NCBI RefSeq assembly: GCF_044704955.1
Contig: NC_091992.1
Coordinates: 73,966,001 to 74,030,000 of the forward strand
Length of the DNA: 64,000 nt
From: Pristiophorus japonicus
Lineage: Eukaryota
Reading direction: 5' to 3'
In this document: one piece after another, positions 5,390 through 64,000 of the stretch
Position numbering within the stretch: the stretch's first letter is position 1
Layout: each line of letters begins with the position of its first letter
Translations under genes and position numbers: made by a program
Notes under the pieces: generated by a model
Told to the model about the DNA's origin: nothing
The model's input: only the letters and a program-made list of their open reading frames with translations
Databases searched by the model: none

Positions 5390-6340
5390 TTCTGGATCAC
5401 CATGTAGAGGGGCGAGAGGGAATCAAAGCAATTATCATGGATGGCAGAATCACCGGTCACCATAATGATCACCACTAACCATGGAGATGGGTGGGATCAC
5501 CGATCACCATGGAGACAGTACGGATTATTCGGCATCGCCAGAGAGAAACGAGATTGTTCGACACCAGAGCGAGGGGAGGGGAAATGGATGAGATTATTAA
5601 TTGCCATGGAGGCGATTGGGATTATTTGTGACCAGAGACGAGAGAATTCATTGGTTATCATGGAAACGGGTGCATTATTGGTCACCATGGAGACAGGTGA
5701 GATTATTGGTCACCATGGAGACAGGTGAGATTATTGGTTGTCATGGAGATGGTGGGATTATTGATCGCCATGGAGACGGTGGGATTATTGGTCGTCATGG
5801 AGACGGCGGGATTATTGGTCGTCATGGAGACGGCGGGATTATTGGTCGCCACGGAGACGGCGGGATTATTGATCGCCATGGAGGCGGCGGGATTATTGAT
5901 CGCCACGGAGACGGCGGGATTATTGGTAGCCACGGAGACAGCGGGATTATTGATCGCCATGGAGACGGTGGGATTATTGGTCGCTATGGAGACAGCGGGA
6001 TTATTGGTAGCCACGGAGACAGCGGGATTATTGGTCGTCATGGAGACGGTGGGATTATTGGTCGCTATGGAGACGGCGGGATTATTGGTCGTCATGGAGA
6101 CGGTGGGATTATTGGTCGCCACGGAGACGGCGGGATTATTGGTCACCACGGAGACGGCGGGATTATTGATCGCCATGGAGGCGGCGGGATTGTTGGTCGT
6201 CATGGAGACGGTAGGATTAATGGTAGCCACGGAGACAGCGGGATTATTGGTCGCCATGGAGACGGCAGGATTATTGGTCGTCATGGAGACGGCGGGATTA
6301 TTGGTCGCCATGGAGACGGCGCGATTATTGGCTGCCATTA
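5390..6340. repeat. 27-bp minisatellite (GGGATTATTGGTCGCCATGGAGACGGC)n in KCTD2 intron 1; about 24 good units plus degenerate distal copies
   Basis: 9-aa periodicity in three overlapping ORFs ([27 protein letters not shown]); array abuts the exon-1 donor at 6341. Confidence 0.95.
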
Positions 6341-11925: not shown

Positions 11926-12047
11926 ATGTCGACTCGTAGAGCTGCCATGAAAGCCGTCGACTGGTTGACGTTTGGTGAGCGGGTCCCACCCAACCAGAGG
12001 CCCATGTTCAACGCTCTGAAAACCAGAAGCGACGCTCTGTCCAGCAG
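11926..12047 (+). CDS. ATP5PD: ATP synthase peripheral stalk subunit d, exon 2 (first coding exon; exon starts at 11917)
   Basis: Acceptor CTCTCTTTTCCCAG|; AAGATGT start; MSTRRAAMKAVDWLTFGERVPPNQRPMFNALKTRSDALSS(R); donor CAG|GTCAGT; 122 nt. Joined CDS 122+97+72+63+132=486 nt = 161 aa plus stop. Confidence 0.96.
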
Positions 12048-12249
12048 GTCAGTGTCCCGCATCTCGGTGACTAACAAGCTCGCTCCTGGTACAGGAATGT
12101 GGTCTCGTGTAAATCCACAGCAGACCAATCCCCTCACTCCCACAGCTGTCAACACGATTTCTCTTGTCTTTTTTTCCCCCAAAATATTTTTTGTGCTCAT
12201 TGGCCTGAGGGACGTCAATGTTGAGGATTGAATATTTTCCATTTCAGGC

Positions 12250-12615
12250 ACCCAGGGCAGGTACAGCACGGGTTAGATACAGAGTAAAGCTCCCTCTACA
12301 CGGTCCCATCAAACACCCCCAGGGCAGGTACAGCACGGGTTAGATACAGAGTAAAGCTCCCTCTGCACTGTCCCATCAAACACTCCCAGGGCAAGTACAG
12401 CTCAGGTTAGATGCAGAGTAAAGCTCCCTCTACACTGTCCCATCACACATTCCCAGGGCAGGTACAGCACGGGTTAGATACAGAGTAAAGCTCCCTCTAC
12501 ACTGTCCCATCGAACACTCCCGGGGCAGGTACAGCATGGGTTAGATACAGAGTAAGGCTCCCTCTACACTGTCCCATCAAACACTCCCAGGGCAGGTATA
12601 GCAGTGTTTGATACA
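12250..12615. repeat. 67-bp tandem repeat array, about 5 units
   Basis: Same unit as 366-648. Confidence 0.92.
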
Positions 12616-12910
12616 ATGCAGAGAGATCTGTTTTTCGAACCTGTGCTGTATCTGAGCTAAATGCTAACACTGTGCCTAAAATGGAGAGTGTACTGAAAAT
12701 ACTGGAAAGACGCATTAGGTCAGGCAGCATCTGTGTGGAGAGAAACAGAGTTAACATTTCAGGTTGATGATCCCTACCCTTGAGCAAAAAATTCATGCAA
12801 AATACAATAAATTGCCTCCTGGTGGGCATGCCCCTGTAAAGTTGCGATACGAGAGATATGTGTGTGGGGTCTCTGCTCGCAGTCTACTGACTGCTGCTGT
12901 TTCCCCACAG

Positions 12911-13007
12911 GTTGACAACGCTCGCTGAGAAACCTCCGACCATTGACTGGAACCATTACCGCAAAGTGATTGCCAAGGCTGGTATGGTGGACGAATTTGA
13001 AAAGAAG
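12911..13007 (+). CDS. ATP5PD: ATP5PD exon 3
   Basis: TTTCCCCACAG|G; (R)LTTLAEKPPTIDWNHYRKVIAKAGMVDEFEKK; donor AAG|GTGAAG; 97 nt. Confidence 0.96.
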
Positions 13008-13139
13008 GTGAAGGAACAGTGTTGTGTTTGGGGGGGTAGGGGAAGCCCACAGAATTGCTCCCTGTGTGTCCTGTATAAACCGCAACATCTCGAGAGTGCT
13101 TTTAAAAGGGAATTCGTTGCTTGCAAAAGAGGAATATTA

Positions 13140-13360
13140 CATGGTATGGGGAGCGAGCAGGAGAGTGGGATTCGACTGGGTGGGATATTATGGAGGTGAG
13201 GAGATTGGGATTAGACTGGGTGGGATATTATGGGGAGCGAGCAGGAGAGTGGGATTAGACTGGGTGGGATATTAAGGGGAATGGAGAGCGAGCAGGAGAG
13301 TGGGATTAGACTGAGTGGGATATTATGGGAAGTGAGGAGATTGGGATTAGACGGGGTGGC
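13140..13360. repeat. Imperfect ~40-50 bp tandem repeat derived from a CR1-like 3' end (GAGCAGGAGAGTGGGATTAGACTGGGTGGGATATTATGG)
   Basis: About 5 copies, preceded by TTTAAAAGGGAATT and followed by a CR1-type 3' UTR remnant. Confidence 0.7.
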
Positions 13361-14009
13361 TCGTGGAGAAAACTAGCAGCCCAATGGCCTGTTTCTGTGC
13401 TGGGACATTGTATGCTCCAGTACTTGTTGTGGTGAGTCCTGTATTTCCATTTCTGTGGGAAGGAAAAGAATCCTAATTGCAACTGCATGGGGGGGGTGAT
13501 GAATTGCCCCTTCAGATGGATTCTTCCATCTCCCAGCGATTACAAAGCTGCAGCAAGCGATTTGTGCCTTTGGTGGAGGAGTCCATTTGCACCGAGGTTC
13601 AGTTCTGTGGCTGCCAGACACTTGCGCCTGAGCCTACACCCCGTTGGCTGGCTATTTGACCACAGTGAGCGTCACGGCCCAGGCCAATCCGATTCTGTGC
13701 TGACGGCCCCAAGTGCTTGTTTGCCAGCAGGAGTCACTGGGTGGTGATTGGGGAGGGGAGCCCGCGCTGGGTTTTCTCCTGCCTAGCCTGCGGAGCCAAG
13801 AATGATCTCAGCACATCAACTGGTGAGACCAGCTAACTCTGCACAGGCTGGCAATTGAAACTGGGGCCTTGGGGCATGAATAACTCGGTGCGTTTACCCA
13901 CTGCGCCACCAGAGAGCTTTGATTCACTGGGACCTTCCGTGTCCCCGAAGCATTTGCTGCAGAGAGCCAACTGTAGCCCAATAACATCTTCCGTAGATAC
14001 AACAATGAC

Positions 14010-14695
14010 ACAAGAACATAAGAATTAGGAGCAGGAGTCGGCCATTCGGCTCCTCGAGCCTGCTCCGCCATTCAATGAGATCATGGCTGATCTTCTACCT
14101 CAGCTCCACTTTCCTGCATTGTCCCCATATCCCTTGATTCCCATTATATCCAAAAATCTATCAATCCCTGTCTTCAATATACACAATGACTCAGCCTCCA
14201 CAGCCCTCTGTGGCAGAGAATTCCAAAGATTCTGAGTGAAGAAGTTCTCCTCATCTCAGTCCTAAATGGCCAACCCCTTATTCTGAGACTGTGACCCCTG
14301 GTTCTAGACTCCCCAGCCCGGGGGAAACATCCACCCTGCATCTACCCTGTCAGGCCCTGTAAGAATTTTGTATGTTTCAATGAGATCCCCTCTCATTCTT
14401 CTAAACTGTAGAGAATGTAGGCCTCGTCTACTCAATCTCTCCTCATAGGACAATCCCCCCATCCCAGGAATCAGTCTGGTGAACCTTTGTTACACTCCCT
14501 CAATGGCAAGTATATCCTTCCTTGGGTAAGGAGACCAAAACTGTGCACAGTACTCCAGGTGCGGTCTCACCAGGGCCCTGTATCATTGCAATAAGACGTC
14601 TTTATTCTTATACTCAAATCCTCTTGTAATAAAGGCCAACACTCCGTTTGCTTTCTTAATTGCTTGCTGTACCTGAATGTTAACTTTCAGTGACA
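14010..14695 (-). mobile_element. CR1 LINE 3' fragment
   Basis: AAGAACATAAGAA tail; ORF 14583-14777 QVQQAIKKANGVLAFITRGFEYK. Confidence 0.88.
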
Positions 14696-15495
14696 GGCAG
14701 GAAAAGACCAGCTGGTCAATCAAGACTGCCAAAACTTGTACCGAAAGCATCTTGACTAGACGTTTCATTGCACCCACCCACCCACCCCCAACCCAGCGGC
14801 CTGTAATCTCCTGGCAGAGGCAAAAAGCCTGAAAAAGGAACCCAGGGCCAAAATGGAGTGAAAAATACCCGGAAAAGTCCTCTCCGACCCCCTCGGGCGA
14901 TCAGAACCAGTCCAGGAGATCACACTGACCATGTGTACGTTAACTGTTAATCCACTCACCTTCTATACGATGCGATCGCTGCCCAGGCAAGAATTGGTCC
15001 AGCTCTCTCCAAGGCTTTGGGAGAGACAGCACCCACCACACCAGCCGCAGCACTTTCCAACCGCTCTATCCCAGATGCATTTGTGGGGAAGATGGATAAA
15101 CACACGAGAGAATAAAAGGATATGTTGATGGGGTTAGAAGAAGAGGGGTGTTGAGGCTCGTGTGGAGCATAAATGGAGGCATGGACCAGCTGGGCCAAGT
15201 GGCCTTGTTTCTGAGCTCCAGCGTCTGTGGAATTCTATGCAATCTTCTTACCTTTGTGTAGTTTAAATGCAGGTCCACTGAATCTCACTGCATTGAGAAT
15301 TTCAGTACAGCCGGGAAGTGGGGCAGGAAGGTGGGATACAGGATCTTCCCCCAGCACATTCGGGATATCTAATTCAGTAATTAATTACGTCTGTTTGATA
15401 GTGGGGGGGGCGGGCGTTGTGGGCGTGTCTGTGACCCTGATATTTTCACTTTACATTTTCTCTCTCCTCCCTCTTTCTCACCCCACCCCCAACAG

Positions 15496-15567
15496 TACGG
15501 TGCTCTGAAGGTTCCAGAACCCATTGACACACAGGTGGCGAAGATTAATGCCCAGGAGCAAGAGGCT
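15496..15567 (+). CDS. ATP5PD: ATP5PD exon 4
   Basis: Long pyrimidine tract, AACAG|; YGALKVPEPIDTQVAKINAQEQEA; donor GCT|GTGAGT; 72 nt. Confidence 0.95.
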
Positions 15568-15670
15568 GTGAGTAATGAGCCATTTTTATTATATTCGAGT
15601 CATACAGTCAGACGGACTCTCGCAACACGCTGGGTCTACATTCAATTAACGGTTTCTGTTTATTCAACAG

Positions 15671-15733
15671 GACAAGAGTGCTCAGTCCTACAGCCTGGCT
15701 TCTAAGGAGCGGATTTCCAAATATGAGAAGGAG
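15671..15733 (+). CDS. ATP5PD: ATP5PD exon 5
   Basis: TTTATTCAACAG|; DKSAQSYSLASKERISKYEKE; donor GAG|GTAATG; 63 nt after a 103-nt intron. Confidence 0.93.
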
Positions 15734-15823
15734 GTAATGCAACTGTGTACACCAGCTCCCATGGCCAAAAAACTAGCTGCATTTCCCCCGCCCCCCCCTG
15801 AGGGGCTGTGTCCCTGGGCAGAT

Positions 15824-16095
15824 TCCACAGGTGCTGTCCCTCCCCGGGGTACAGACTCCATGGATGCTGTCCCTCCCCGGGGTACAGACTCCATGGATGC
15901 TGTCCCTCCCCGGGGACAGACTCCATGGATACTCTCCCTCCCCGGGGTACAGGCTCCATGGATGCTGTCCCTCCCCGGGGTACAGACTCCATGGATGCTC
16001 TCCCTCCCCGGGGTACAGGCTCCATGGATGCTGTCCCTCCCCGGGGTACAGACTCCATGGGTGCTGTCCCTCTCTGGGGTCCAGGTTCCATGGGC
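15824..16095. repeat. 33-bp minisatellite (TCCATGGATGCTGTCCCTCCCCGGGGTACAGAC)n, about 8 units
   Basis: 11-aa periodicity in the overlapping ORFs on both strands. Confidence 0.93.
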
Positions 16096-16792
16096 ACTGA
16101 CTCTCAATCGGGTACAGAGCCATGGGTGCTGGGGCAGGGGGCTCTCTCGCTGGGGCACGGGTTCTGACACATTACGGCCAGTGCTGCGTGATTGCCAGCA
16201 GGTGTCTTACTGCTGCATCTGATCATGACCTCGCCCAACAGCTACAATCAGAGATTTACAGCACTGAAGGAGGCCATTTCAGCCCATTGTATCCACACTG
16301 GCTGACGAAGAGTTATCCAGCCTAATCTCACTTTCCAGCTCTAGGTCCGTAGCCCTGTAGGTTACGGCACTTAAGGTGCACATCCAAGTACTTTATAAAT
16401 GTGGTAAGGGTTTCTGCCTCTACCACCCTTTCAGGCCGTGAGTTCCAGACCCCCACGAGCCTCTGCATGAAGAAATTTCCCCTCAAATCCCCTTTAAACC
16501 TTCTACCAATTACTTTAAATTTATGCCCCCTGGTTGTTGACCCCGCTGCTAAGGGAAATAGGCCCTTTATATCCACTCTATCTAGGCCCCTCATAATTTT
16601 ATACATCTCAATGAGGTCTCTCCCCTGTTCCAATGAAAACAAATCCAGTCTACCTAATCTGTCCTCGTATCTTAGATTCTCCACTCTGGGCAACATCCTC
16701 GTAAATCTCCTCTGTACCCTCTCTAGTGCAATCACAACCTTCCTGTAATGTGGTGACCAGAACTACACGCAATACTCCAGCTGTGGCCTAAC

Positions 16793-19742
16793 TACATAGA
16801 AATGTAGGCCATTCAGCCCTTCTAGCCTGCACCGCCATTCAATGAGTTCATGGCTGAACATGCAACTTCAGTACCCCATTCCTGCTTTCTCGCCATACCC
16901 CTTGATCCCCCTAGTAGTAAGGACTTCATCTAACTCCTTTTTGAATATATTTAGTGAATTGGCCTCAACAACTTTCTGTGGTAGAGAATTCCACAGGTTC
17001 ACCACTCTCTGGGTGAAGAAGTTCCTCCTCATCTCGGTCCTAAATGGCTTACCCCTTATCCTTAGACTGTGTCCCCTGGTTCTGGACTTCCCCAACATTG
17101 GGAACATTCTTCCTGCATCTAACCTGTCTAACCCCGTCAGAATTTTAAACGTTTCTATGAGGTCCCCTCATTCTTCTGAACTCCAGTGAATACAAGCCCA
17201 GTTGATCCAGTCTTTCTTGATAGGTCAGTCCCGCCATCCCGGGAATCAGTCTGGTGAACCTTCGCTGCACTCCCTCAATAGCAAGAATGTCCTTCCTCAG
17301 GTTAGGAGACCAAAACTGTACACAATACTCCAGGTGTGGCCTCACCAATGCCCTGTACAACTGTAGCAACACCTCCCTGCCCCTGTACTCAAATCCCCTC
17401 GCTATGAAGGCCAACATGCCATTTGCTTTCTTAACCGCCTGCTGTACCTGCATGCCAACCTTCAATGACTGATGTACCATGACACCCAGGTCTCTTTGCA
17501 CCTCCCCTTTTCCTAATCTGTCACCATTCAGATAATAATCTGTCTCTCTGTTTTTACCACCAAAGTGGATAACCTGATATTTATCCACATTATACTTCAT
17601 CTGCCATGCATTTGCCCACTCACCTAACCTATCCCAAGTCACTCTGCAGCCTCATAGCATCCTCCTCGCAGCTCACACTGCCACCCAACTTAGTGTCATC
17701 CGCAAATTTGGAGATACTACATTTAATCCTCTCGTCTAAATCATTAATGTACAGTGTAAACAGCTGGGGCCCCAGCACAGAACCTTGCGGTACCCCACTA
17801 GTCACTGCCTGCCATTCTGAAAAGTACCCATTTACTCCTACTCTTTGCTTCCTGACTGCCAACCAGTTCTCAATCCATGTCAGCACACTACCCCCAATCC
17901 CATATGCTTTAACTTTGCACATTAATCTCTTGTGTGGGACCTTATCGAATGCCTTCTGAAAGTCCAAATATACCACATCAACTGGTTCTCCCTTGTCCAC
18001 TCTACTGGAAACATCCTCAAAAAATTCCAGAAGATTTGTCAAGCATGATTTCTCTTTCACAAATCCATGCTGACTTGGACCTCTCATGTCACCTCTTTCC
18101 AAATGCGCTGCTATGACATCCTTAATAATTGATTCCATCATTTTACCCACTACTGATGTCAGGCTGACCGGTCTATAATTCCCTGTTATCTCTCTCCCTC
18201 CTTTTTTAAAAAGTGGGGTTACATTGGCTACCCTCCACTCCATAGGAACTGATCCAGAGCCAATGGAATGTTGGAAAATGACTGTCAATGCATCCATTAT
18301 TTCCAAGGCCACCTCCTTAAGTACTCTGGGATGCAGTCCATCAGGCCCTGGGGATTTATCGGCCTTCAATCCCATCAATTTCCCCAACACAATTTCCCGA
18401 CTAATAAGGATTTCCCTCAGTTCCTCCTCCTTACTAGACCCTCCGACCCCTTTTATATCCGGAAGGTTGTTTGTGTCCTCCTTAGTGAATACCGAACCAA
18501 AGTACTTGTTTAATTGGTCCGCCATTTCTTTGTTCCCCGTTATGACTTCCCCTGATTCTGACTGCAGGGGACCTACGTTTGTCTTTACTAACCTTTTTCT
18601 CTTTACATATCTATAGAAGCTTTTGCAATCCGTCTTTATGTTCCCTGCAAGCTTCTTCTCGTACTCCATTTTCCCTGCCCTAATCAAATCCTTTGTCCTC
18701 CTCTGCTGAGTTCTAAATTTCTCCCAGTCCCTGGGTTCGCTGCTATTTCTGGCCAATTTGTATGCCACTTCCTTGGCTTTAATACTATCCCTGATTTCCC
18801 TTGATAGCCACGGTTGAGCCACCTTCCCTTTTTAATTTTTACGCCAGACAGGAATGTACAATTGTTGTAGTTCATCCATGCGGTCTCTAAATGTCTGCCA
18901 TTGCCTATCCACAGTCAACCCCTTAAGTATCATTCGCCAATCTATCCTAGCCAATTCACGCCTCATACCTTCAAAGTTAGCCGCCTTTAAGTTCTGGACC
19001 ATGGTCTCTGAATTAACTGTTTCATTCTCCATCCTAATGCAGAATTCCACCATATTATGGTCACTCTTCCCCAAGGGGCCTCGCACAACGAGATTGCTAA
19101 TTAATCCTCTCTCATTACACAACACCCAGTCTAAGATGGCCTCCCCCCTAGTTGGTTCCTCGACATATTGGTCTAAAAAACCATCCCTTATGCACTCCAG
19201 GAAATCCTCCTCCACCGTATTGCTTCCAGTTTGGTTAGCCCAATCTATGTACATATTAAAGTCACCCATTATAACTGCTGCACCTTTATTGCATGCACCC
19301 CTAATTTCCTGTTTGATGCCCTCCCCAACATCACTACTACTGTTTGGAGGTCTGTACACAACTCCCACTAATATTTTTTGCCCTTTAGTGTTCTGCAGCT
19401 CTACCCATATAGATTCCACATCATCCAAGCTAATGTCCAACCTAACTATTGCCTTAATCTCCTCCTTAACCAGCAATGCTACCTCACCTCCTTTTCCTTT
19501 TATTCTATCCTTCCTGAATGTTGAATACCCCTGGATGTTGAGTTCCCAGCCCTGATCATCCTGGAGCCACGTCTCCGTAATCCCAATCACATCATATTTT
19601 TAACATCTATTCATCCACCTTATTGCGGATACTCCTTGCATTAAGACATAAAGCTTTCAGGCTTGTTTTTTTAACACCCTTTGTCCTTTTAGAATTTTGC
19701 TGTACAATGGCCCTTTTTGTTCTTTGCCTTGGGTTTCTCTGC
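16793..19742 (-). mobile_element. Young CR1 LINE with near-complete ORF2 and a few frameshifts
   Basis: ORFs 18832-19590 (endonuclease), 17629-18822 ([10 protein letters not shown]), 17145-17642, 16868-17107; CATAGAAA tail. Confidence 0.95.
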
Positions 19743-20357
19743 CTAGTGTTTTATACAGTTCAAGCATAACCTCACTGCTGTTGTATTCTATTCCTCGGCT
19801 AATAAAGGTAAGTATTCCGTATGCCTTCTTAACCACCTTGTCTATCTGGCCTGCTACTTTCAGGGATCTATGGACATGCACTCCAAAGTCCCTTTGTTTC
19901 TCTACACATCTCAGTATCCTACCATTTAATGTGTATTCCCTTTCCTTGTTAGCCCTCCCAAAATGCATTACCTCACACCTCTCTGGATTAAATTCCATTT
20001 GCCATTGTTCTGCCCACCTGACCAGTTGAGTGATATCTTCCTGCAGTCTACAGCTTTCTTCTTATCAACCACACAGCCTATTTTAGTACCATCTGCAAAC
20101 TTCTTAATCATACCCACTATATTCAAATCTAAATCATTGATGTATATCACTAAAAGCAAGTGACCTAGTACTGAGCCCTGCGGAATCCCACCGGAAACAA
20201 CCTTCCAGTCACAAAACCACCCATCAACCATCACCCGTTGCTTCCTGCCTCTGAGCCAATTTTGGATCCAACTTCCACTTTGCCCTGGATCCCATGGGCT
20301 TTTACTTTCGTGACCAGTCTGCCATGTGGGACCTTATCAAAAGCTTTGCTAAAATCC

Positions 20358-20885
20358 ATCATCATCATAATCATAGGCAGTCCCTCGGAATCGAGGAAGA
20401 CTTGCTTCCACTCTAAACATGAGTCCTTAGGTGGCTGAACAGTCCAATACGAGAACCACAGTCCCTGTCACAGGTGGGACAGATAGTCGTTGAAGGAAAG
20501 GGTGGGTGGGACAGGTTTGCCGCTGCCTGCACTTGGTTTTTGCACGCTCTCGGTGATGAGACTTGAGGTGTTCAGCGCCCTCTCGGATGCACTTCCTCCA
20601 CTTAGGGCGGTATTTGGCCAGGGTCTCCCTGGTGTCAGTGGGGATGTTGCATTTTATCAGGGAGGCTTTGAGGGTGTACTTTTAATGTTTCCTCTGCCCA
20701 CCTTTGGCTCGTTTGCCGTGAAGGAGTTCCGCGTAGAGCGCTTGCTGTGGGAGTCTCGTGTCTGGCATGCGGACAATGTAGCCTGCGCAGCGGAGCTGAT
20801 CAAGTGTGGTCAGTGCTTCAATGCTGGGGATGTTGGCCTGGTCGAGGATGCTAATGTTGGTGCGTCTGTCCTCCCAGGGGATTTG
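20358..20885 (-). mobile_element. RTE-clade LINE 3' fragment; other copies 26708-27035 (-), 31925-32108 (+), 44732-45410 (-)
   Basis: WEDRRTN..LDQANIPSIE..RMPDTRLP..GKRAKGGQRK C-terminal motif; (CAT)n tail. Confidence 0.88.
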
Positions 20886-21650
20886 TATATCCATATACAG
20901 TGCATTATACCCTTTTCCCTCATCGACCCTCCTGGTTACCTCCTTGAAAAATTCAGTCGTTAGTCAGACACAACCTTCCCTTAACAAATCCATGCTGACT
21001 GTCCTTGATTAATCTGTGTCTTTCTAAGTGAAGATATCTCCTGTCCTTCAGGATTTTTTCCAATAACTTTCCCACCACTGAGGTTAGGCTGACTGGCGTG
21101 TAATTACTCAGTCTATCCCTTTCTCCCTTCTTAAACAAAGGTACCACATTAAGAGTCCTCTAGTCCTCTGGCACCACACCTGTAGCCTGTGTATCTCCCA
21201 GCAGGGGTCACTGAGCCACACAGCCTGAACCCCGGCTGTTTTTGCCTCCCCGACCTTGGCCTGTGTCGCTAAGGCAAAATTCGACTGTTTTGAGACCTGC
21301 CAACCCAGCCCTTCCTGTCCGAAGGTCACAAATACTTGTTGGCTTTACCACAGACCCCTGGGGGAACTTAACCAGGTTAGCTTGGACTAGTGTGTAACCA
21401 TCACAGCCAAAGCCTATCCTGATCCCGCCCTGTCGCTGCTCCCACACATCCCCCAGCCCCATCGCCATCCTCCTGCCCCATCCCGGCTCAGAGTCCTGGA
21501 CGAGTAAGCACAAGGGGGGTGTATTTGGCGGGGTGTATAAGGGAGTTTTACGGGCGGGGGATTTCCGGAGGGCAGACCAGTACCCTCTGGCTATCGGTGT
21601 ACTGTAACATGATACTTTCTCATTTGTTCTGCCCACTTGCTGTGTTCCAG

Positions 21651-21782
21651 CTGGCGAAATTCAGAAGCATGGTTCCCTTTGACCAGATGACCATCGAGGA
21701 TCTGAACGATGCTTTCCCTGAAACCAAACTGGACATGCAGAAGTATCCCTTCTGGCCCCACAAGCCCATCAATGAGCTGTAA
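21651..21782 (+). CDS. ATP5PD: ATP5PD exon 6 (terminal coding exon)
   Basis: TGTGTTCCAG|; LAKFRSMVPFDQMTIEDLNDAFPETKLDMQKYPFWPHKPINEL* matches the conserved subunit d C-terminus. Confidence 0.97.
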   Translation: MAKFRSMVPFDQMTIEDLNDAFPETKLDMQKYPFWPHKPINEL

Positions 21783-26705: not shown

Positions 26706-28724
26706 ACCATCATCATCATCATCATAGGCAGTCCCTCGAAATCGAGGAAGACTATCTTCCACTCTAAAAGTGAGTTCTCAGGTGACTGAACAGTCCAATA
26801 CGGGGATTACAGTCTCTCGCCGGTGAGACAGACAGTGGTTGAAGGAAAGGGTGGGTGGGACTGGTTTGCCACCCGCTCCTTCCGCTGCCTGCGCTTGATT
26901 TCTGCATGCTCTCAGCGATGAGATTCGAGGTGCTCAGCGCCCTCCCGGATGCTCTTCCTCCACTTGGGGCGGTCTTTGGCTGGGGATTCCCAGGTGTTGG
27001 TAGGGATGTTGCATTTTATCAGGGAGGCTTTGAGATGACCAGGGTCATCACAGCTGATCACCTGACACATCACTCAGTAGAAGCAGGATCGCTTGCTGAC
27101 TTATATCCCTTTCTGTCCATTACCAATTGATATCTAAGGTTTCCTTATCCAATTTCAGCTGCAAGTAATGCACTGGCTTCACCTTTTCTATTCTGCTTGT
27201 ACTCTGAGGTCCTCTTTCAAGCTGAAGAGTTCTGAGGTTTGTCACTTTGGTCTAACACTGGGGATCAACAAGCATTACTTTTGCGCAGGGAGGGTGGGGT
27301 AACTTCTGGTCATTATCACATTGCTGTTTGAGAGACCTTACTGTGTTCAAATTAGCTGCCATGTTTCCTACATTACAATAGTGACTACACTTCACTTAAT
27401 TTGCTGTTTGGGATGTCCTGAGATTGTGAAAGGTGCTATATAAATACAAGTCTTTGGGCTTGTGCATAAAAAGCCCAATTATGGAGGGGGAGATACAGTG
27501 CAATACTTGGTGTATGACCAGAACTAATTCTGGATTACATACCCAGTATATTGCCTTGTGTTGATGTTGGTTGTGGTGGGGGTCAGCCCTTCGAACATGG
27601 CTGGTGTAGAATGTCAGTCTGCAGCCCGGCAGGGGCGAGTAGAATGTGTGTTTTAATCTCCATTCATTTGTGTTGTGATCCGAGATCATCACTAACTTGG
27701 GATTGATACGTGTTGCAGTAAAGGATATTTTTAAAAAACAGCTGCAAGTGGCACAGACACAATGGGTCGAATGGCCTCCTTCTGTGCCGTAAATTTCTGT
27801 GATTCTGTGAAGTGTCGAACCTGTAAGGGTCTGGAAATTTTTATTTGCAGTTGACCATTTTTTTTTGCAAGTTTTTCCTCTCTTGCCACCTCAACCAAGT
27901 AGTAACTCTTCCTCTGTTAGCCAGACAGTGGGTGCTGGCGGGCTGTTTGACCATAGGGGCCGCCACAGTCAGACCTGACATGGCACTATTCCAGTAATCA
28001 GGAGTGGAATGCCTGGTTGATTTCCCTCTCTGGGTTAGGGACCAATTGTAAACATCTCTATCATTCCCTGGCTGAGATCAGCTCTTGTCAGCAGAAGTTG
28101 GGGCTCAAACTTGGGCCCTTTCGGTTTGCTTTGCTGTTTCAGCCAGGTGAGGTGCTGGGGAATGCCCAGGTTTTATGAATGTTTGAAAGGGTTTTGCCCT
28201 TAAATAAGTTTAGATTTACTTAAATAAGTCTGTCCCCTCTTCACCCAGACATTCTCTTGTCAAGAATTAAGTCAAAATGATGCTACAAATACAGATCATT
28301 CACCAATTTCCTTGCTGCAAAGTTGTGGGAAGTGATCGGTTAGCTCCTAATTCAACAACAACAACTTTATATAGTGCCTTTAATGTAGTAAAACGTCCCG
28401 AGGTGCTTCACAGCAGTGTTATAAGACATTTTCAAGAGGGAGTTAGATATGGCCCTTATGGTTAAGGGGAGCAAGGGGTATGGAGAGAAAGCAGGAAAGG
28501 GGTACTGAGGTGATGATCAGCCATGATCTTATTGAATGGCGGTGCAGGCTCGAAGGGCCGAATGGCCTACTCCTGCACCTATTTTCTATGTTTCTAAACC
28601 AGATAAATTTGACAACATTCGTTTCACCAAAATTTGATTCACCAAACCAACTCATGCCAGGAAGAAACCAAAACGGGTGTAAATAAATTTGCTCACTCAA
28701 CATAGAGCAAATTGTAGTGCCCCA

Positions 28725-29409: not shown

Positions 29410-29680
29410 GGGTAGAGGGAGCTTTACTCTGTATCTAACCCCGTGCTGTACCTGACCTGGGAGTGTTTGATGGGACAGTGTAGAGGGAGCTTTACTCTGT
29501 ATCTAACCCCGTGCTGTACCTGACCTGGGAGTGTTTGATGGGACAGTGTAGAGGGAGCTTTACTCTGTATCTAACCCGTGCTGTATCTGCCCTGGGAGTG
29601 TTTGATGGGACAGTGTAGAGGGAGCTTTACTCCGTATCTAACCATGTGCTGTACCTGCCCTGGGAGTGTTTGATGGAACA
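29410..29680. repeat. 67-bp tandem repeat array, inverted orientation, about 4 units
   Basis: Reverse complement of the 366-648 unit. Confidence 0.9.
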
Positions 29681-30361: not shown

Positions 30362-30590
30362 CAATGCAAAAGCAACATTTTGCGGATGCTGGAATCTAAA
30401 ATAAAAACAGAAAATGCTGGAAATCTCAACGGGTCAGGCAGCATCTGTGGAGAAAGAGTTAACGTTTCGGGTCGATGACACTTCGTCACAACGTTCTGAC
30501 AAGGGTCACCGACCCGAAACGTTAACTCTGTGTTTCTCTCTCCACAGATGCTGCCTGACCCGCTGAGATTTCCAGCATTTCTCTGGTTTA
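30362..30590. mobile_element. Inverted pair of short Penelope-type (hammerhead-bearing) elements forming a ~190-bp palindrome
   Basis: Arms centred at ~30492 (CAAC|GTTC) are reverse complements; both hammerhead cores are mutated (GUGACGA; CUGAC-AA). Confidence 0.75.
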
Positions 30591-30599
30591 TATGTCTTT

Positions 30600-30950
30600 C
30601 TTCCATTGCTGCGGCCAGTGAGCTGGGGCCGGGGCCAGTCGGTGTCCCTTTAAGGAGCGGGACCAGCGGCATCTTTAAGGCGTGTCGAGGCGGCTGTCCC
30701 TTTAAAAGGGGCGGGGCGCTGTAAAGCCGCTTTGCAGACGCTGCTCGCCATCAGTCGGCCGGAGAGATGGCGCTCAACAGGCCGGGGGTGCCTGGCAACC
30801 ACAGGTACCGGGGAGTGGCGGGGAGAGAGAGAGGGCTTGCCGAGTCTGGGCCTCGGGCTGGGCCCGGGTCCGGGCTCGGGCCCGGCCTCAGGCTGCAGCC
30901 AGTCACCTAGGCCCGGCCGGCCGGCCGGCCGGCCGGCCGGCCTGTCTGTC
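30600..30950 (+). promoter_or_regulatory. WBP2 CpG island/promoter with GC box
   Basis: High GC and CpG, GGGGCGGGGC at ~30708-30718, three CTTTAA motifs; surrounds the first coding exon. Confidence 0.75.
30767..30804 (+). CDS. WBP2: WW domain-binding protein 2, exon 1
   Basis: GAGATGG Kozak; MALNRPGVPGNH(S), compare human MALNKNHS; donor CAG|GTACCG, phase 2, matching exon 2. Confidence 0.85.
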
Positions 30951-33682: not shown

Positions 33683-33780
33683 AGTTCTGACTAAGGGTCA
33701 TCGACCTGAAACGTTAACTCTGCTTCCTCTCCACAGATGCTGCCTGACCTGCTGAAATTTCCAGCATTTTCTGTTTTTAT
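33683..33780 (+). mobile_element. Short hammerhead-type element inserted into an L2 3' end
   Basis: AGTT-CTGACTA-AGGGTCATCGACCT-GAAACGTT-AACT; target duplication TCTGGA at 33677-33682 and 33781-33786. Confidence 0.75.
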
Positions 33781-37974: not shown

Positions 37975-38345
37975 GTTTGGGAGTGTTTGATGGAACAGTG
38001 CAGAGGGAGCTTTACTCTGTATCTACCCCGTGCTGTACCTGCCCTGGGGGTGTTTGATGGGACAGTGAAGAGGGAGCTTTACTCTGTATCTAACCTGTGC
38101 TGTACCTGCCCTGGGAGTACTTGATACTAACGTTGGGTAACCTATTCCCCAGCAATAACATCCTGTACCTTGAGGATTGGTTGTGGGGATGGGGGAAACC
38201 ATTCTGTACCCCAGTGTTAGTGACAGACCTGTACCCACCAGTACTGTACCCCAGTGTTATACAGTGACATACCTGTACCCACCAGTACTGTACCCCAGTG
38301 TTATACAGTGACAGACCTGTACCCACCAGTACTGCACCCCAGTGT
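37975..38345. repeat. Inverted 67-bp array (37975-38118) followed by inverted 44-bp array (38203-38345)
   Basis: Reverse complements of the units at 366-648 and 1-260. Confidence 0.88.
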
Positions 38346-38487
38346 TGCACAGGGACACCCAGCAGTAATACATATACAGTGGCTCTGCCCCCAGCAGTAA
38401 CAGACCTGTACTGATATAACTGAATGAATTTGTTGGCCTTCCTGTATCCTATGTCACGGTGCTCTTCTGTATCTGTTTTTTTTTCAG

Positions 38488-42930: not shown

Positions 42931-44370
42931 TACAGTCCAGCCTCACTCTCCCTTCACCATGCCTTTCCGCCTTCATATTTTGTCCCCTTATTCCTATAGC
43001 TGCTGACTTTTTTTGCTGGGCAATGGTTCCTGTTGGGAGGGAGGGGCATCAGTCCAGATGCTTGGTGATGCAAACCGTGGGGAAGGACTACCCTTTATAC
43101 TTCAGCTCACAGTTCCTTTTAATGTGTTAACTGTGGCTCAGTGGCAGCACTCTTGACCCCGTCAGAAGGTTGTAGGTTCAAGTTCGACTCCAAAGATTTG
43201 AGCCCATAATCTAGGCTGACACTCCAGTCAGAGGTGCCGTCTTTCGGATGAGGCGTTAAACCGAGGCATCGTCCACCCTCTCGGGTGAACATAAATAATT
43301 CCACGGCACTATTTCAAAGAACAGGGGAGTTATCCCCGGTGTCCTGGCCAATATTTATTCCTTAACCGACATCACTAAAACAGATTATCTGATCATTTAT
43401 CACATTGCTGTTTGTGGGACCTTGCTGTGTGCAAATTGGCTGCCGTGTTTCCTACATTACACCATGATGACAATTCATTGGCTGTAAAACGCGTTGGGGT
43501 ATCCAGGGGTTGTGAAAGGCGCTATAGAAATGCAAGTTTGTTCTTGAGGGAATTATCCCCTGGGATCACTGCACTAGGAGGCAGTTTGGGCTCAAAGTCT
43601 ATGATCTGGTTCATTTTATAGCGGGGGCATTGGGGGAAAAAAAGGGGATTTATAGATTTTAGTTCAAGGTTGCTGACGAGCCAGGAGGTTCTGCCCTGTC
43701 CGGCACAGTGGTCTGTGTGCTGGGAGCCAAGGCCATAAACCGGCTCCTCCGTTGAGCAATGTGGTCAGATTTGCTGGTCTGAGACATTAGTCTGGGGCCA
43801 ACTGATCCATTCCTAGTCGGCTGTTAATGATATGGCCCATTTCATGGACACTCAAGGACCGACTTTATCAGCTGAGAGTGCACTTTACATTGATCATTAG
43901 TGATGGACGCTTTCGATCCCCTCTTACCCCAACAATTGACCAGTGAATATTGTACTGCCTCCCACCCTTGGGTTACAACCAAATGAAATAAGGGGCAACT
44001 CAAGATCTCATCTTGGGGTACAGTATGGGTGGGTACAGGTCTGTCACTGTATAACACTGGGGTACAGTACTGGTGGATACAGGTCTGTCACTGTATAACA
44101 CTGGGGTACAGTACAGGTCTGTCACTGGGTGACACTGCCTCGTGATCAGATAAATTAAAGCTGGACTATTTCACAATGTTACATTGTCCTGACCTTTTTG
44201 AAAGATTTGAAGGTGTCTGTAGGGGAGGTGGTTATTGTGAGGTCTGGTGATGGAATTCCTATGCCTTGGTGCTGTGTTTGTGCAGTCCCTTACCACATTA
44301 TGTTCCGAATCGACCTTCAGTCTAATTGAGGGGTGCATGTGTTTACTAAACCCTCTCTATTCTCTCCCAG

Positions 44371-62095: not shown

Positions 62096-62464
62096 CTTCA
62101 CTCTTTCTCCCATATCCTGGCTATCTTTAGCTCATCAGGCCGTTGGTGTGGAAGCTGCCTCCTCCTTTGCCAGGGACTTGTGCTCTTCGTGACTATAATT
62201 CCTATCTATGGAATCACTATTCCAATCTTTCACTCCATCACTGTCCCTTGAACTCTTATCCTGCCAGTCCAGAATGGAAAGAGAGAAGAACTTGCATTTA
62301 TATAGCACCTTTCACAACCTCAGGATATGCCAAAATGCTTTACAGCCACTTAATTACTTGTTAAAGTGTAGTCACTGTTGTAATGTAGGAAATGCAGCAG
62401 CCAATTTGCGCACAGCACGCTCCCACACACAGCAATGTGATAATGAGCGGATAATCTGCTTTTT

Positions 62465-62505
62465 AGAGTTCTGACGAAGAGTCATCGACCTGAAACGTTA
62501 ACTCT
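62465..62505 (+). ncRNA. Second minimal hammerhead ribozyme motif (weaker stem II)
   Basis: AGAGUU-CUGACGA-A-GAGUC-AUC-GACCU-GAAAC-GUU-AACUCU; 6-bp stem I; one mismatch and one G-U pair in stem II. Confidence 0.55.
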
Positions 62506-62930
62506 GTTTTTCTCTCTCCACAGATGCTGCCTTCTCCACAAATGCTGCCTGACCCGCTGAGATTTGCAGCATTTTCTGTTTTTATTTCAGATTCCAGCCT
62601 CTGCAGTGTTTTGCTTTTGTAATCTGTTTTTGGGTGTTGGTTGAGGGGTAAATATTGGCCAGGACACCAGGTCAATAACTCCCCTGCTCTGCTTTGAAAT
62701 AGTGCTATGGGATCTTTTACGATCCTGAGAGAGCAGACAGGGCCTCGGTTTAACATCTAATCTGAAACACACCACCTCTGACAATGCAGCACTCCCTCTG
62801 CACTGCACTGGTGTGTCAGCCTAGATTATGTTCTTGAGTAAAAACAGAAAATGATAGAAATACTCAGCAGGTCAGGCAGCATCTGTGGAGAGAGAAACAG
62901 AGTTAATGTTTCAGGTCAAACCCAGAACCC

Positions 62931-62967
62931 AGTTCTGATGAAGGGTCATTGACCCGAAACGTTAACT
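62931..62967 (+). ncRNA. Minimal type I hammerhead ribozyme motif (Penelope-type)
   Basis: Stem I AGUU/AACU; core CUGAUGA (62935-62941) plus extra A; stem II GGGUC-AUU-GACCC; GAAAC; GUU cleavage triplet with palindromic AACGUU stem III. Confidence 0.7.
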
Positions 62968-64000
62968 CTGTTTCTCTCTCCACAGATGCTGCCTGACCTG
63001 CTGAGTATTTCTATCATTTTGTTTTTATTTCAGATTCCAGCATCCGCAATGTTTTGCTTTTATATTTATGTTCTCCAGTCCCTGGTGTGCGACTTGAACC
63101 CACAACCTTCTGACTTGGAGTAGAGAGGGCTACCCACTAAGCCATGGCTGACATGTCGGGGCTAAGAGGAGTTCAGACATGGTCACCTTGCTTCGTAACC
63201 GTCAACTGATGGCTGCTTTAATTTCTCGCTCCACCTATAATTGTGTAAACATCCACGGGTGAACTTTATTTTTCTTCTCTGAAATAATTTGCATGGTGGC
63301 TCCACATCCAAGGTTTTTGCTGGCTGGTCTGACATTCCAGATTTTTTTCCAGATGAAGCCTTTTCCATGATGGTATAACCAATGGGACTGTTTTTTTTTT
63401 TCCTTCTTGGGCATCACTGGCAAGGCCAGCACTTATTGCCCATCCCTAATTGCCCCTTCACTGCCACCTTCTTGAACCGCTGCAGTCCCTGTGGTGAAGG
63501 TGCTCCCACAGTGCTGTTGGGGAGGGAGTTCCAGGATTTCGACCCAGCGACGATGAAGGAATGGTGATATATTTCCAAGTCCGGATGGTGTGTGATTTGG
63601 AGGGGAACGTGGAGGTGGTGGTGTTCCCATGCTCCTGCTGCCCTTGTCCTTCTAGATGGTAGAGGTCACGGGTTTGGGAGTTGCTGCAGTGCATCTTGTA
63701 GATGGTGCACACTGCAGCCACAGTGCGCCGGTGGTAGAGGGAGTGAATGTTGAAGGTGATCTAGATGCCCAGAACCAGAGATTCACACATCTTGTGTGGG
63801 TCAAAGTTACTCACCTGAGGGAGGTGTGAAAGCAGAAATTTCCTTTAGTCTCTTAAGCGAAATAGGAGCCTGATGCCTTGGGTCTGCTAGGTACCCCAGA
63901 CCGTGTCTCTCCAAACTTGCGGTGGGCCAAAGCCACTCCCAACCATGGCTGGCTGTTGAAGGGTCCCAGTCCCAAATTGCTGGGTTTCTCCCTGGCGCAC

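Follow-up and report, generated by a model that had tools for sequence, protein, structure and literature searches.

Results

The Locus and Its Repeats

The window, by which we mean the whole 64-kb stretch of shark DNA analyzed here, carries on its plus strand the exons of ATP5PD, the gene for ATP synthase subunit d (11930-21780), with LINE-type APE and reverse transcriptase (RT) pieces in one of the introns. The ATP5PD exon compared with known proteins matched that of Pristiophorus japonicus at 100% and those of eight other elasmobranchs at 82-86%. A BTB-domain exon on the minus strand, which we take to be KCTD-like, is directly followed by a 27-bp minisatellite of 25 copies (5659-6338) that creates a spurious frame of 9-residue repeats. 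A 67-68-bp minisatellite family occupies four dispersed sites (368-646, 12251-12615, 29412-29680, and 37978-38125), and a 44-bp minisatellite is found at 1-257, 38204-38357, and 44014-44118. Pfam analysis of 87 of the 109 open reading frames (ORFs) of at least 100 amino acids recovered APE-endonuclease and RT pieces, ATP synthase d exons, and the BTB exon, and detected no GIY-YIG domain in these 87, in keeping with the original prediction that the window holds no Penelope ORF.

Dispersed in this sequence are seven copies (arms) of a short unit, grouped into five insertions of 85-230 bases (A-E; Table 1), which together make up 793 bases, or 1.24%, of the window. BLAST and a hidden Markov model of the unit recovered these five, at the sites where recurrence had been predicted, and no others in the 64 kb. 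B, D, and E are single copies, whereas A and C (two of the five insertions) are head-to-head inverted pairs, each of which joins one short and one long arm. In both pairs the two arms are mutual closest relatives, with 97.2% or 95.3% identity as compared with 80-94% across the other 19 arm pairs; those of A are identical at 69 of 71 positions. Such likeness fits a single event from a single template, but gene conversion could be an alternative. The arms of C meet at AAC|GTT (30492/30493), and the cores of both are broken; B has an internal duplication of 18 nt at 62515-62550. If transcribed, the inverted pairs are predicted to fold into long double-stranded hairpins of about -140 to -149 kcal/mol. 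The copies in the window are probably inert. Immediately downstream of the C pair come a GC-rich stretch that resembles a promoter and, at 30768-30805, what seems to be a first coding exon.

Table 1. Insertions of the unit, their parts, and flanking duplications (TSD, target-site duplication)
Feature	Position	Strand	Remarks
Insertion A	62840..63065	.	Head-to-head inverted pair: short minus arm and long plus arm
A plus arm (A+)	62929..63065	+	Long form with tail; starts with CCAG
A minus arm	62840..62928	-	Short form; core and 5' strand of stem II deleted
Putative minimal type I hammerhead motif	62931..62967	+	In A plus arm
Optional 3' extension (tail), about 35 nt	63030..63065	+	Only in A+, B+, and C-
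A left TSD, 14 bp	62826..62839	+	Agrees with right copy at 12/14 positions; single in 6 empty host copies
A right TSD	63066..63079	+	
Insertion B	62467..62619	+	Lone long arm; core kept; stem II has an A.C mismatch
B left TSD, 14-15 bp	62452..62466	+	Once in 8 empty host copies
B right TSD	62620..62633	+	
Host repeat copy	62284..63153	+	Interrupted by both A and B; flanks match several uninterrupted copies in the window
Insertion C	30363..30593	.	Head-to-head inverted pair: long minus arm and short plus arm
C possible TSD, 7 bp	30356-62 / 30594-600		6/7 matching; no empty copy found in the window
Insertion D	33683..33780	+	Lone short arm; G8 changed to T
D TSD, 6-7 bp	33677-82 / 33781-86		Site once in 1 empty host copy
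Insertion E	12692..12776	-	Degenerate short arm; begins in stem II; no core; inside an ATP5PD intron; no TSD found

Target-Site Duplications

The host repeats, which we take to be L2 or SINE elements, are multi-copy in the window, and candidate duplications were checked by comparison with uninterrupted host copies within it. Three of the five insertions (A, B, and D) have duplications of 6-15 bp that are confirmed by such empty copies (six, eight, and one, respectively), one has a possible duplication, and for one we found none. The claim of three duplications of variable length stood. The lengths had to be revised: that of A is 14 bp rather than 9 bp, and re-measurement gave the values in Table 1 for B and D.

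A Minimal Hammerhead Motif

The best copy, A+, has the full core at the coordinates predicted for it. Stem I is formed by 62931-34 (the 5' arm, AGTT) and 62964-67; it is followed by the core CUGAUGA (62935-41), an extra A (62942), stem II (62943-47/62951-55), GAAA (62956-59), and a palindromic ACGU, and cleavage is predicted after U17 (62963). A+ matches every consensus position of the minimal hammerhead known from Penelope-like elements (PLEs), down to the additional nucleotide that separates A9 from G10.1, and this match supports the assignment to the minimal type I hammerheads of Penelope kind. A strict descriptor of that motif had its sole match in the window at 62935 and no match in 100 Markov-resampled 64-kb sequences. 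CUGANGA is kept in two of the seven arms, A+ and B+, in which the CUGANGA and GAAA boxes and the NUH site are all intact, and is broken in the other five. The stem II closing pair is G-C in three arms and G.U in three. Five of the seven arms have the ACGU palindrome, with no helix III loop; the remaining two show CpG-type changes.

Two-sided changes affected none of the nine helix pairs across the seven arms, too small a sample to weigh for or against compensatory variation; this is as expected of dead copies from one source. The Rfam search proposed with the original prediction gave no hammerhead match at gathering score in the window and none among the 17 matches at E<=10 in 62400-63100. None of the miRNA-family matches that Rfam returned in that interval reached gathering score; they stem from the inverted pair. 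Folding of A+ gave -13.7 kcal/mol for the double hammerhead as against -28.1 kcal/mol for a competing duplex. With the double hammerhead 14 kcal/mol above its competitor, and with the pairs predicted to form hairpins, we expect the ribozyme to have no activity in situ.

Clustered 5' Starts and Two 3' Ends

The units had been said to begin exactly at stem I. Six of the seven arms do start within a 4-nt window, CCAG|TT, but not at one base: they begin with CCAG, AG, or G, and the arm of E has its start in stem II. The chance of four of five insertions falling within 4 nt, if truncation were uniform over 100-40 nt, is 0.001-0.011 (a post hoc calculation). The six starts lie 31-35 nt upstream of the predicted cut. 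Self-cleavage is therefore unlikely to be what defines this boundary, contrary to the proposal that the ribozyme forms the edge of the element, and the RNA that was copied was uncut there.

The 3' ends, measured in six arms, are bimodal, falling 43-46 nt (short) or 78-82 nt (long) past a shared anchor, that is, about 35 nt apart. In both pairs the tail is carried by one arm. Inverted pairs and two 3' ends, neither of which figured in the original prediction, are the most diagnostic PLE features of the family. Within 63005-63065 (plus strand) the tail resembles a diverged repeat of the preceding 30 nt (CCAGCAT, then a T-rich run ending near ATT), and given this likeness each 3' end falls at the matching point of one of two tandem motifs. 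Back-pairing of the tail with 62985-62991, or with the counterpart of that stretch, is predicted in A+ and C-.

Copies in Public Contig Runs

Contigs from four public runs (three organisms, out of 24 runs listed) were aligned to 62916-63095 at 80% likeness; one of the runs, X1, may be the source of the assembly. The numbers of contigs aligned (43,176, 1,833, 30,208, and 1,652), which are not copy numbers, show that the family is abundant in all four, as had been proposed. The helix II closing pair is G.U (62955 C>T) in 76-99% of the depth, that is, in most copies.

The idea of an independent tiny element was not supported by these contigs. In all four runs, loose ends before 62929 ran into one common sequence (712, 71, 319, and 36 contigs; agreement 0.51-0.63), and this class was the best-supported left loose end in every run. 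Many copies therefore extend at least 30 nt further upstream, as expected for the clipped ends of a longer element. At its 3' end the shared sequence has CTAAC, then a T run, then CCAG, an order that resembles a branch point and splice acceptor; an A/T-rich box lies about 25-30 nt before CCAGTTC, which fits the initiator pattern YYANWYY. A second class, starting at 62932, has long flanks of low agreement and was found, among the ends listed, in X1 (277 contigs, 0.35) and X13 (178 contigs, 0.34) and not in X5 or X19; it is mixed, since traces of the shared upstream sequence persist in its majority line. The long 3' end, at 63061, was likewise followed by low-agreement flanks (413 contigs in X1 and 25 in X5), and the ends listed included no shared sequence downstream of the tail. 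The short 3' end is invisible in the runs, as a private 2-nt deletion at 63020 clips the alignments; the depth profile is triangular, is distorted both by short contigs and by changes private to the reference arm, and is unreadable for truncation; and opposite-strand joints were too few and too ambiguous to interpret.

A 14-nt piece of the shared upstream sequence had 16 loose matches in the window, with 6.7 expected, none of them adjoining an arm. The best, at 28052, has no hammerhead following it. The 40-codon frame at 62953-63072, a very short query and hence weak evidence, had no match among longer proteins or among 1.84 billion representatives. Exact-pattern scans returned nothing from viral contigs, two metagenome scans, or prokaryote genomes, collections in which shark DNA is not expected.

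Discussion

Probable Terminal Pieces of a Penelope-Like Element

We consider it probable that the insertions are short terminal pieces (a pLTR with an optional tail) of an endonuclease-bearing shark PLE, written by the element's own RT and not excised by the hammerhead. Mobilization by a PLE reverse transcriptase, as originally proposed, is supported as the most likely course. The account starts from what the window displays: insertions, single or head-to-head, with 6-15-bp target duplications and two discrete 3' ends about 35 nt apart. By extension from the biochemistry described for Poseidon_Ac (PMC11167929), a GIY-YIG/RT protein would nick the target DNA, and cDNA would begin about 95 nt or about 130 nt downstream of hammerhead C3, at one of two internal sites, so as to give short or long arms. 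Synthesis would usually stop at CCAG|TT, the front of helix I. On a long RNA, cDNA primed in the 3' pLTR would run further upstream and yield the class with the shared upstream sequence. Inverted pairs would result from priming on both target strands or from fold-back of one cDNA. The hammerhead would likely be a passenger in the copies, being copied uncut, decaying without compensation, and, in the pairs, trapped in a predicted long hairpin.

As to what might stop the cDNA at the front of helix I, we favor, within the explanation just given, that the cDNA runs off where transcription starts in the 5' pLTR; the alternatives are that it stalls at a splice acceptor or at a point of fold-back. 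We put our preference at no better than about even chances, since a splice-acceptor stall suits the same 4-nt window and has a precedent in Drosophila virilis. In the D. virilis Penelope the intron ends at the front of helix I (PMC4209133); the element's start site lies 46 bp before the intron (416-491; PMC2377424), and C3 is at 496 (PMC4209133), which places transcription start about 125 nt upstream of the hammerhead (PMC4209133, PMC2377424). By analogy, this arrangement would speak against the transcription-start step. A spliced template, for its part, is less likely, since none of the arms has a distinct exon joined upstream of it.

In favor of the PLE reading, the motif fits the minimal hammerhead consensus, including the palindromic 15.2/16.2 pair. 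Against it, no parent ORF is linked to the unit, so that its membership among the PLEs is judged from anatomy, and the sharp 5' start is absent from PLE descriptions as given in the sections we draw on, where 5' truncation is variable (PMC8557442, PMC8969392).

Other Readings

The same pieces could come from a dedicated non-autonomous mini-element, a SINE-like parasite of PLEs whose short non-coding master RNA has its own promoter, starts at CCAG|TT, and is copied in trans by a PLE RT; of the alternatives, this one comes near the original prediction. The tight starts of six of the seven arms, the density of five insertions per 64 kb, the missing link to an ORF, and the shared upstream line, with its A/T-rich box and initiator-like CCAGTTC, would all suit such an element. 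Non-autonomous PLE derivatives are, moreover, on record (PMC8557442; bioRxiv 10.64898/2026.07.22.740005). We nonetheless regard this reading as unlikely. Contigs that continue upstream form the best-supported class in every run; the 5' end of an autonomous mRNA predicts identical short products and makes a separate master unneeded (judging by the account of Poseidon_Ac in PMC11167929); and the missing ORF can be attributed to the absence of a genome to search.

The original prediction also likened the unit to a retrozyme, in which hammerheads of tandem units cleave as dimers and circular RNA is released and reinserted. Retrozymes made of tandem units have been reported in one chondrichthyan genome, with an average of 363 bp, and have been traced to PLE pLTRs in Xenopus (bioRxiv 10.64898/2026.07.22.740005). 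The shark unit resembles the non-LTR retrozymes in being non-coding, in its type I hammerhead, in its proposed PLE origin and mobilization, and in its dispersed monomers; it differs in that the defining traits of retrozymes are tandem units arranged head-to-tail and a circular RNA, and we saw neither here (PMC7761336; bioRxiv 10.64898/2026.07.22.740005). None of 24 TRF rows for the window is a tandem array holding the unit, insertion ends do not coincide with the cut site, and the pairs are inverted rather than head-to-tail; with their arms on opposite strands, they cannot form a cis dimer. One X1 contig, the only head-to-tail one among the joints listed, passes from the long end (63058) to a new start at 62929 by way of 32 letters that resemble the shared upstream sequence; it may represent a unit of about 162 nt or else a partial tandem, and is equally accounted for as a partial tandem of a PLE. 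The retrozyme reading is in our judgment very improbable. Even less credence is due to the idea that self-cleavage makes the fixed boundary. The boundary does coincide with the front edge of the motif, but a cut after U17 would leave an RNA starting at 62964, whereas the arms include the cut site, and no left loose end was found at 62964 among those listed. As TSD-flanked fold-backs, finally, the pairs recall MITE-like DNA transposons with long terminal inverted repeats, in which the hammerhead match would be incidental. This reading we regard as next to untenable: it is already contradicted by the single arms B and D, which have their own TSDs, and it sits poorly with TSDs varying from 6 to 15 bp, with a motif that fits at every consensus position, and with the 35-nt tail by which pair ends differ, so that the termini are not inverted copies of each other.

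Comparison with Known Systems

The minimal hammerhead of PLEs was defined by Cervera and De la Pena (2014; PMC4209133), and the shark motif shares with it CUGANGA plus one extra nucleotide, the G10.1 pair, GAAA, the palindromic 15.2/16.2, a short helix I, the lack of a helix III loop, and U-rich sequence upstream. According to that paper, such motifs number thousands per genome in coelacanth and Xenopus, are mostly single and dispersed with some opposite-strand pairs, are read as probable truncated PLEs, and have low activity even as dimers. G.U closings occur in its alignment, but the 5-bp helix II of the shark unit, G.U-closed in most copies, is a difference from its motifs. Its 56-motif alignment and Table S1 include no chondrichthyan, and in the sections we draw on it describes no fixed 5' start at helix I, such as the shark arms have (PMC4209133). 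Our literature search, thin in subscription papers, found no publication on minimal hammerheads in sharks; the shark family may already be catalogued in repeat databases such as Repbase and Dfam.

In the Anolis element Poseidon_Ac, as described by Frangieh et al. (2024; PMC11167929), a 30-40-nt tail lies between two internal sites at which the RT starts, both target strands are extended in vitro, cleavage is protein-assisted, and uncut RNA is the main substrate. The shark unit likewise has two ends downstream of the hammerhead with a tail of that size between them, the long site lying 127-130 nt after C3 as compared with 117-124 nt in Poseidon_Ac (counted from the published text). It differs in that the parent of Poseidon_Ac is known and its ORF starts in stem II, whereas the shark unit has no linked ORF, and in that the downstream sequence is U-rich in the shark and AC-rich in Poseidon_Ac (PMC11167929). 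Likenesses to the D. virilis Penelope and the Pen elements of Adineta vaga are head-to-head inverted pLTRs, solo pLTRs, TSDs (8-10 bp in those elements), and an optional 31-34-bp tail on one arm; their pLTRs, however, are about 190-220 bp or longer and flank ORFs, whereas the shark insertions measure 85-230 bp and contain none (PMC2377424, PMC3846280). More generally, inverted pLTRs, a one-sided tail of 30-40 bp, 8-10-bp TSDs, solo pLTRs, and TATA- and Inr-like pLTR motifs are described as PLE traits (PMC8557442, PMC3846280), and fold-back has been proposed for head-to-head junctions (PMC8557442, PMC3846280, PMC2377424, PMC8969392, PMC7761336, PMC6155905). Inverted pairs, an optional 30-40-nt tail, solo ends, and dispersed minimal hammerheads are thus all published traits, and the best reading of the shark insertions is as pLTR and tail fragments that arise when PLE reverse transcription is initiated internally, rather than as retrozymes.

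How PLEs integrate and what their hammerheads do are treated as open questions in the sections of the literature we draw on (PMC11167929, PMC8557442, PMC7761336). A dense family of short, TSD-bounded copies is useful for testing PLE mechanism, as its predictions can be counted genome-wide without bench work: whether inverted pairs always combine a short and a long arm, whether 5' ends fall at the cut or at helix I, and whether the point at helix I marks the start of transcription or a splice acceptor. Most worth such a count are the fixed 5' start and the pairing of short with long arms. A more ambitious claim is tentative, and we would sooner doubt than assert it: "strong-stop" PLE insertions flanked by TSDs may be very numerous in shark genomes and may preserve a record of the two internal RT start sites and of a single fixed stop at the front of an uncut hammerhead, with pairs that are always short plus long. 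Such a set would represent either an independent ribozyme mini-retroelement with its own start site or the trace, left in vivo, of a PLE RT dimer that primes on two strands and needs no self-cleavage.

Finally, each arm contains two more splice-acceptor-like tracts (a branch-like TTAAC or CTGAC, a pyrimidine run, and CAG), located in A+ at 62960-62986 and 63005-63036 (plus strand), the first with an ATG directly after it, at 62986. These tracts could make cryptic exons if a copy lands in an intron in this orientation.
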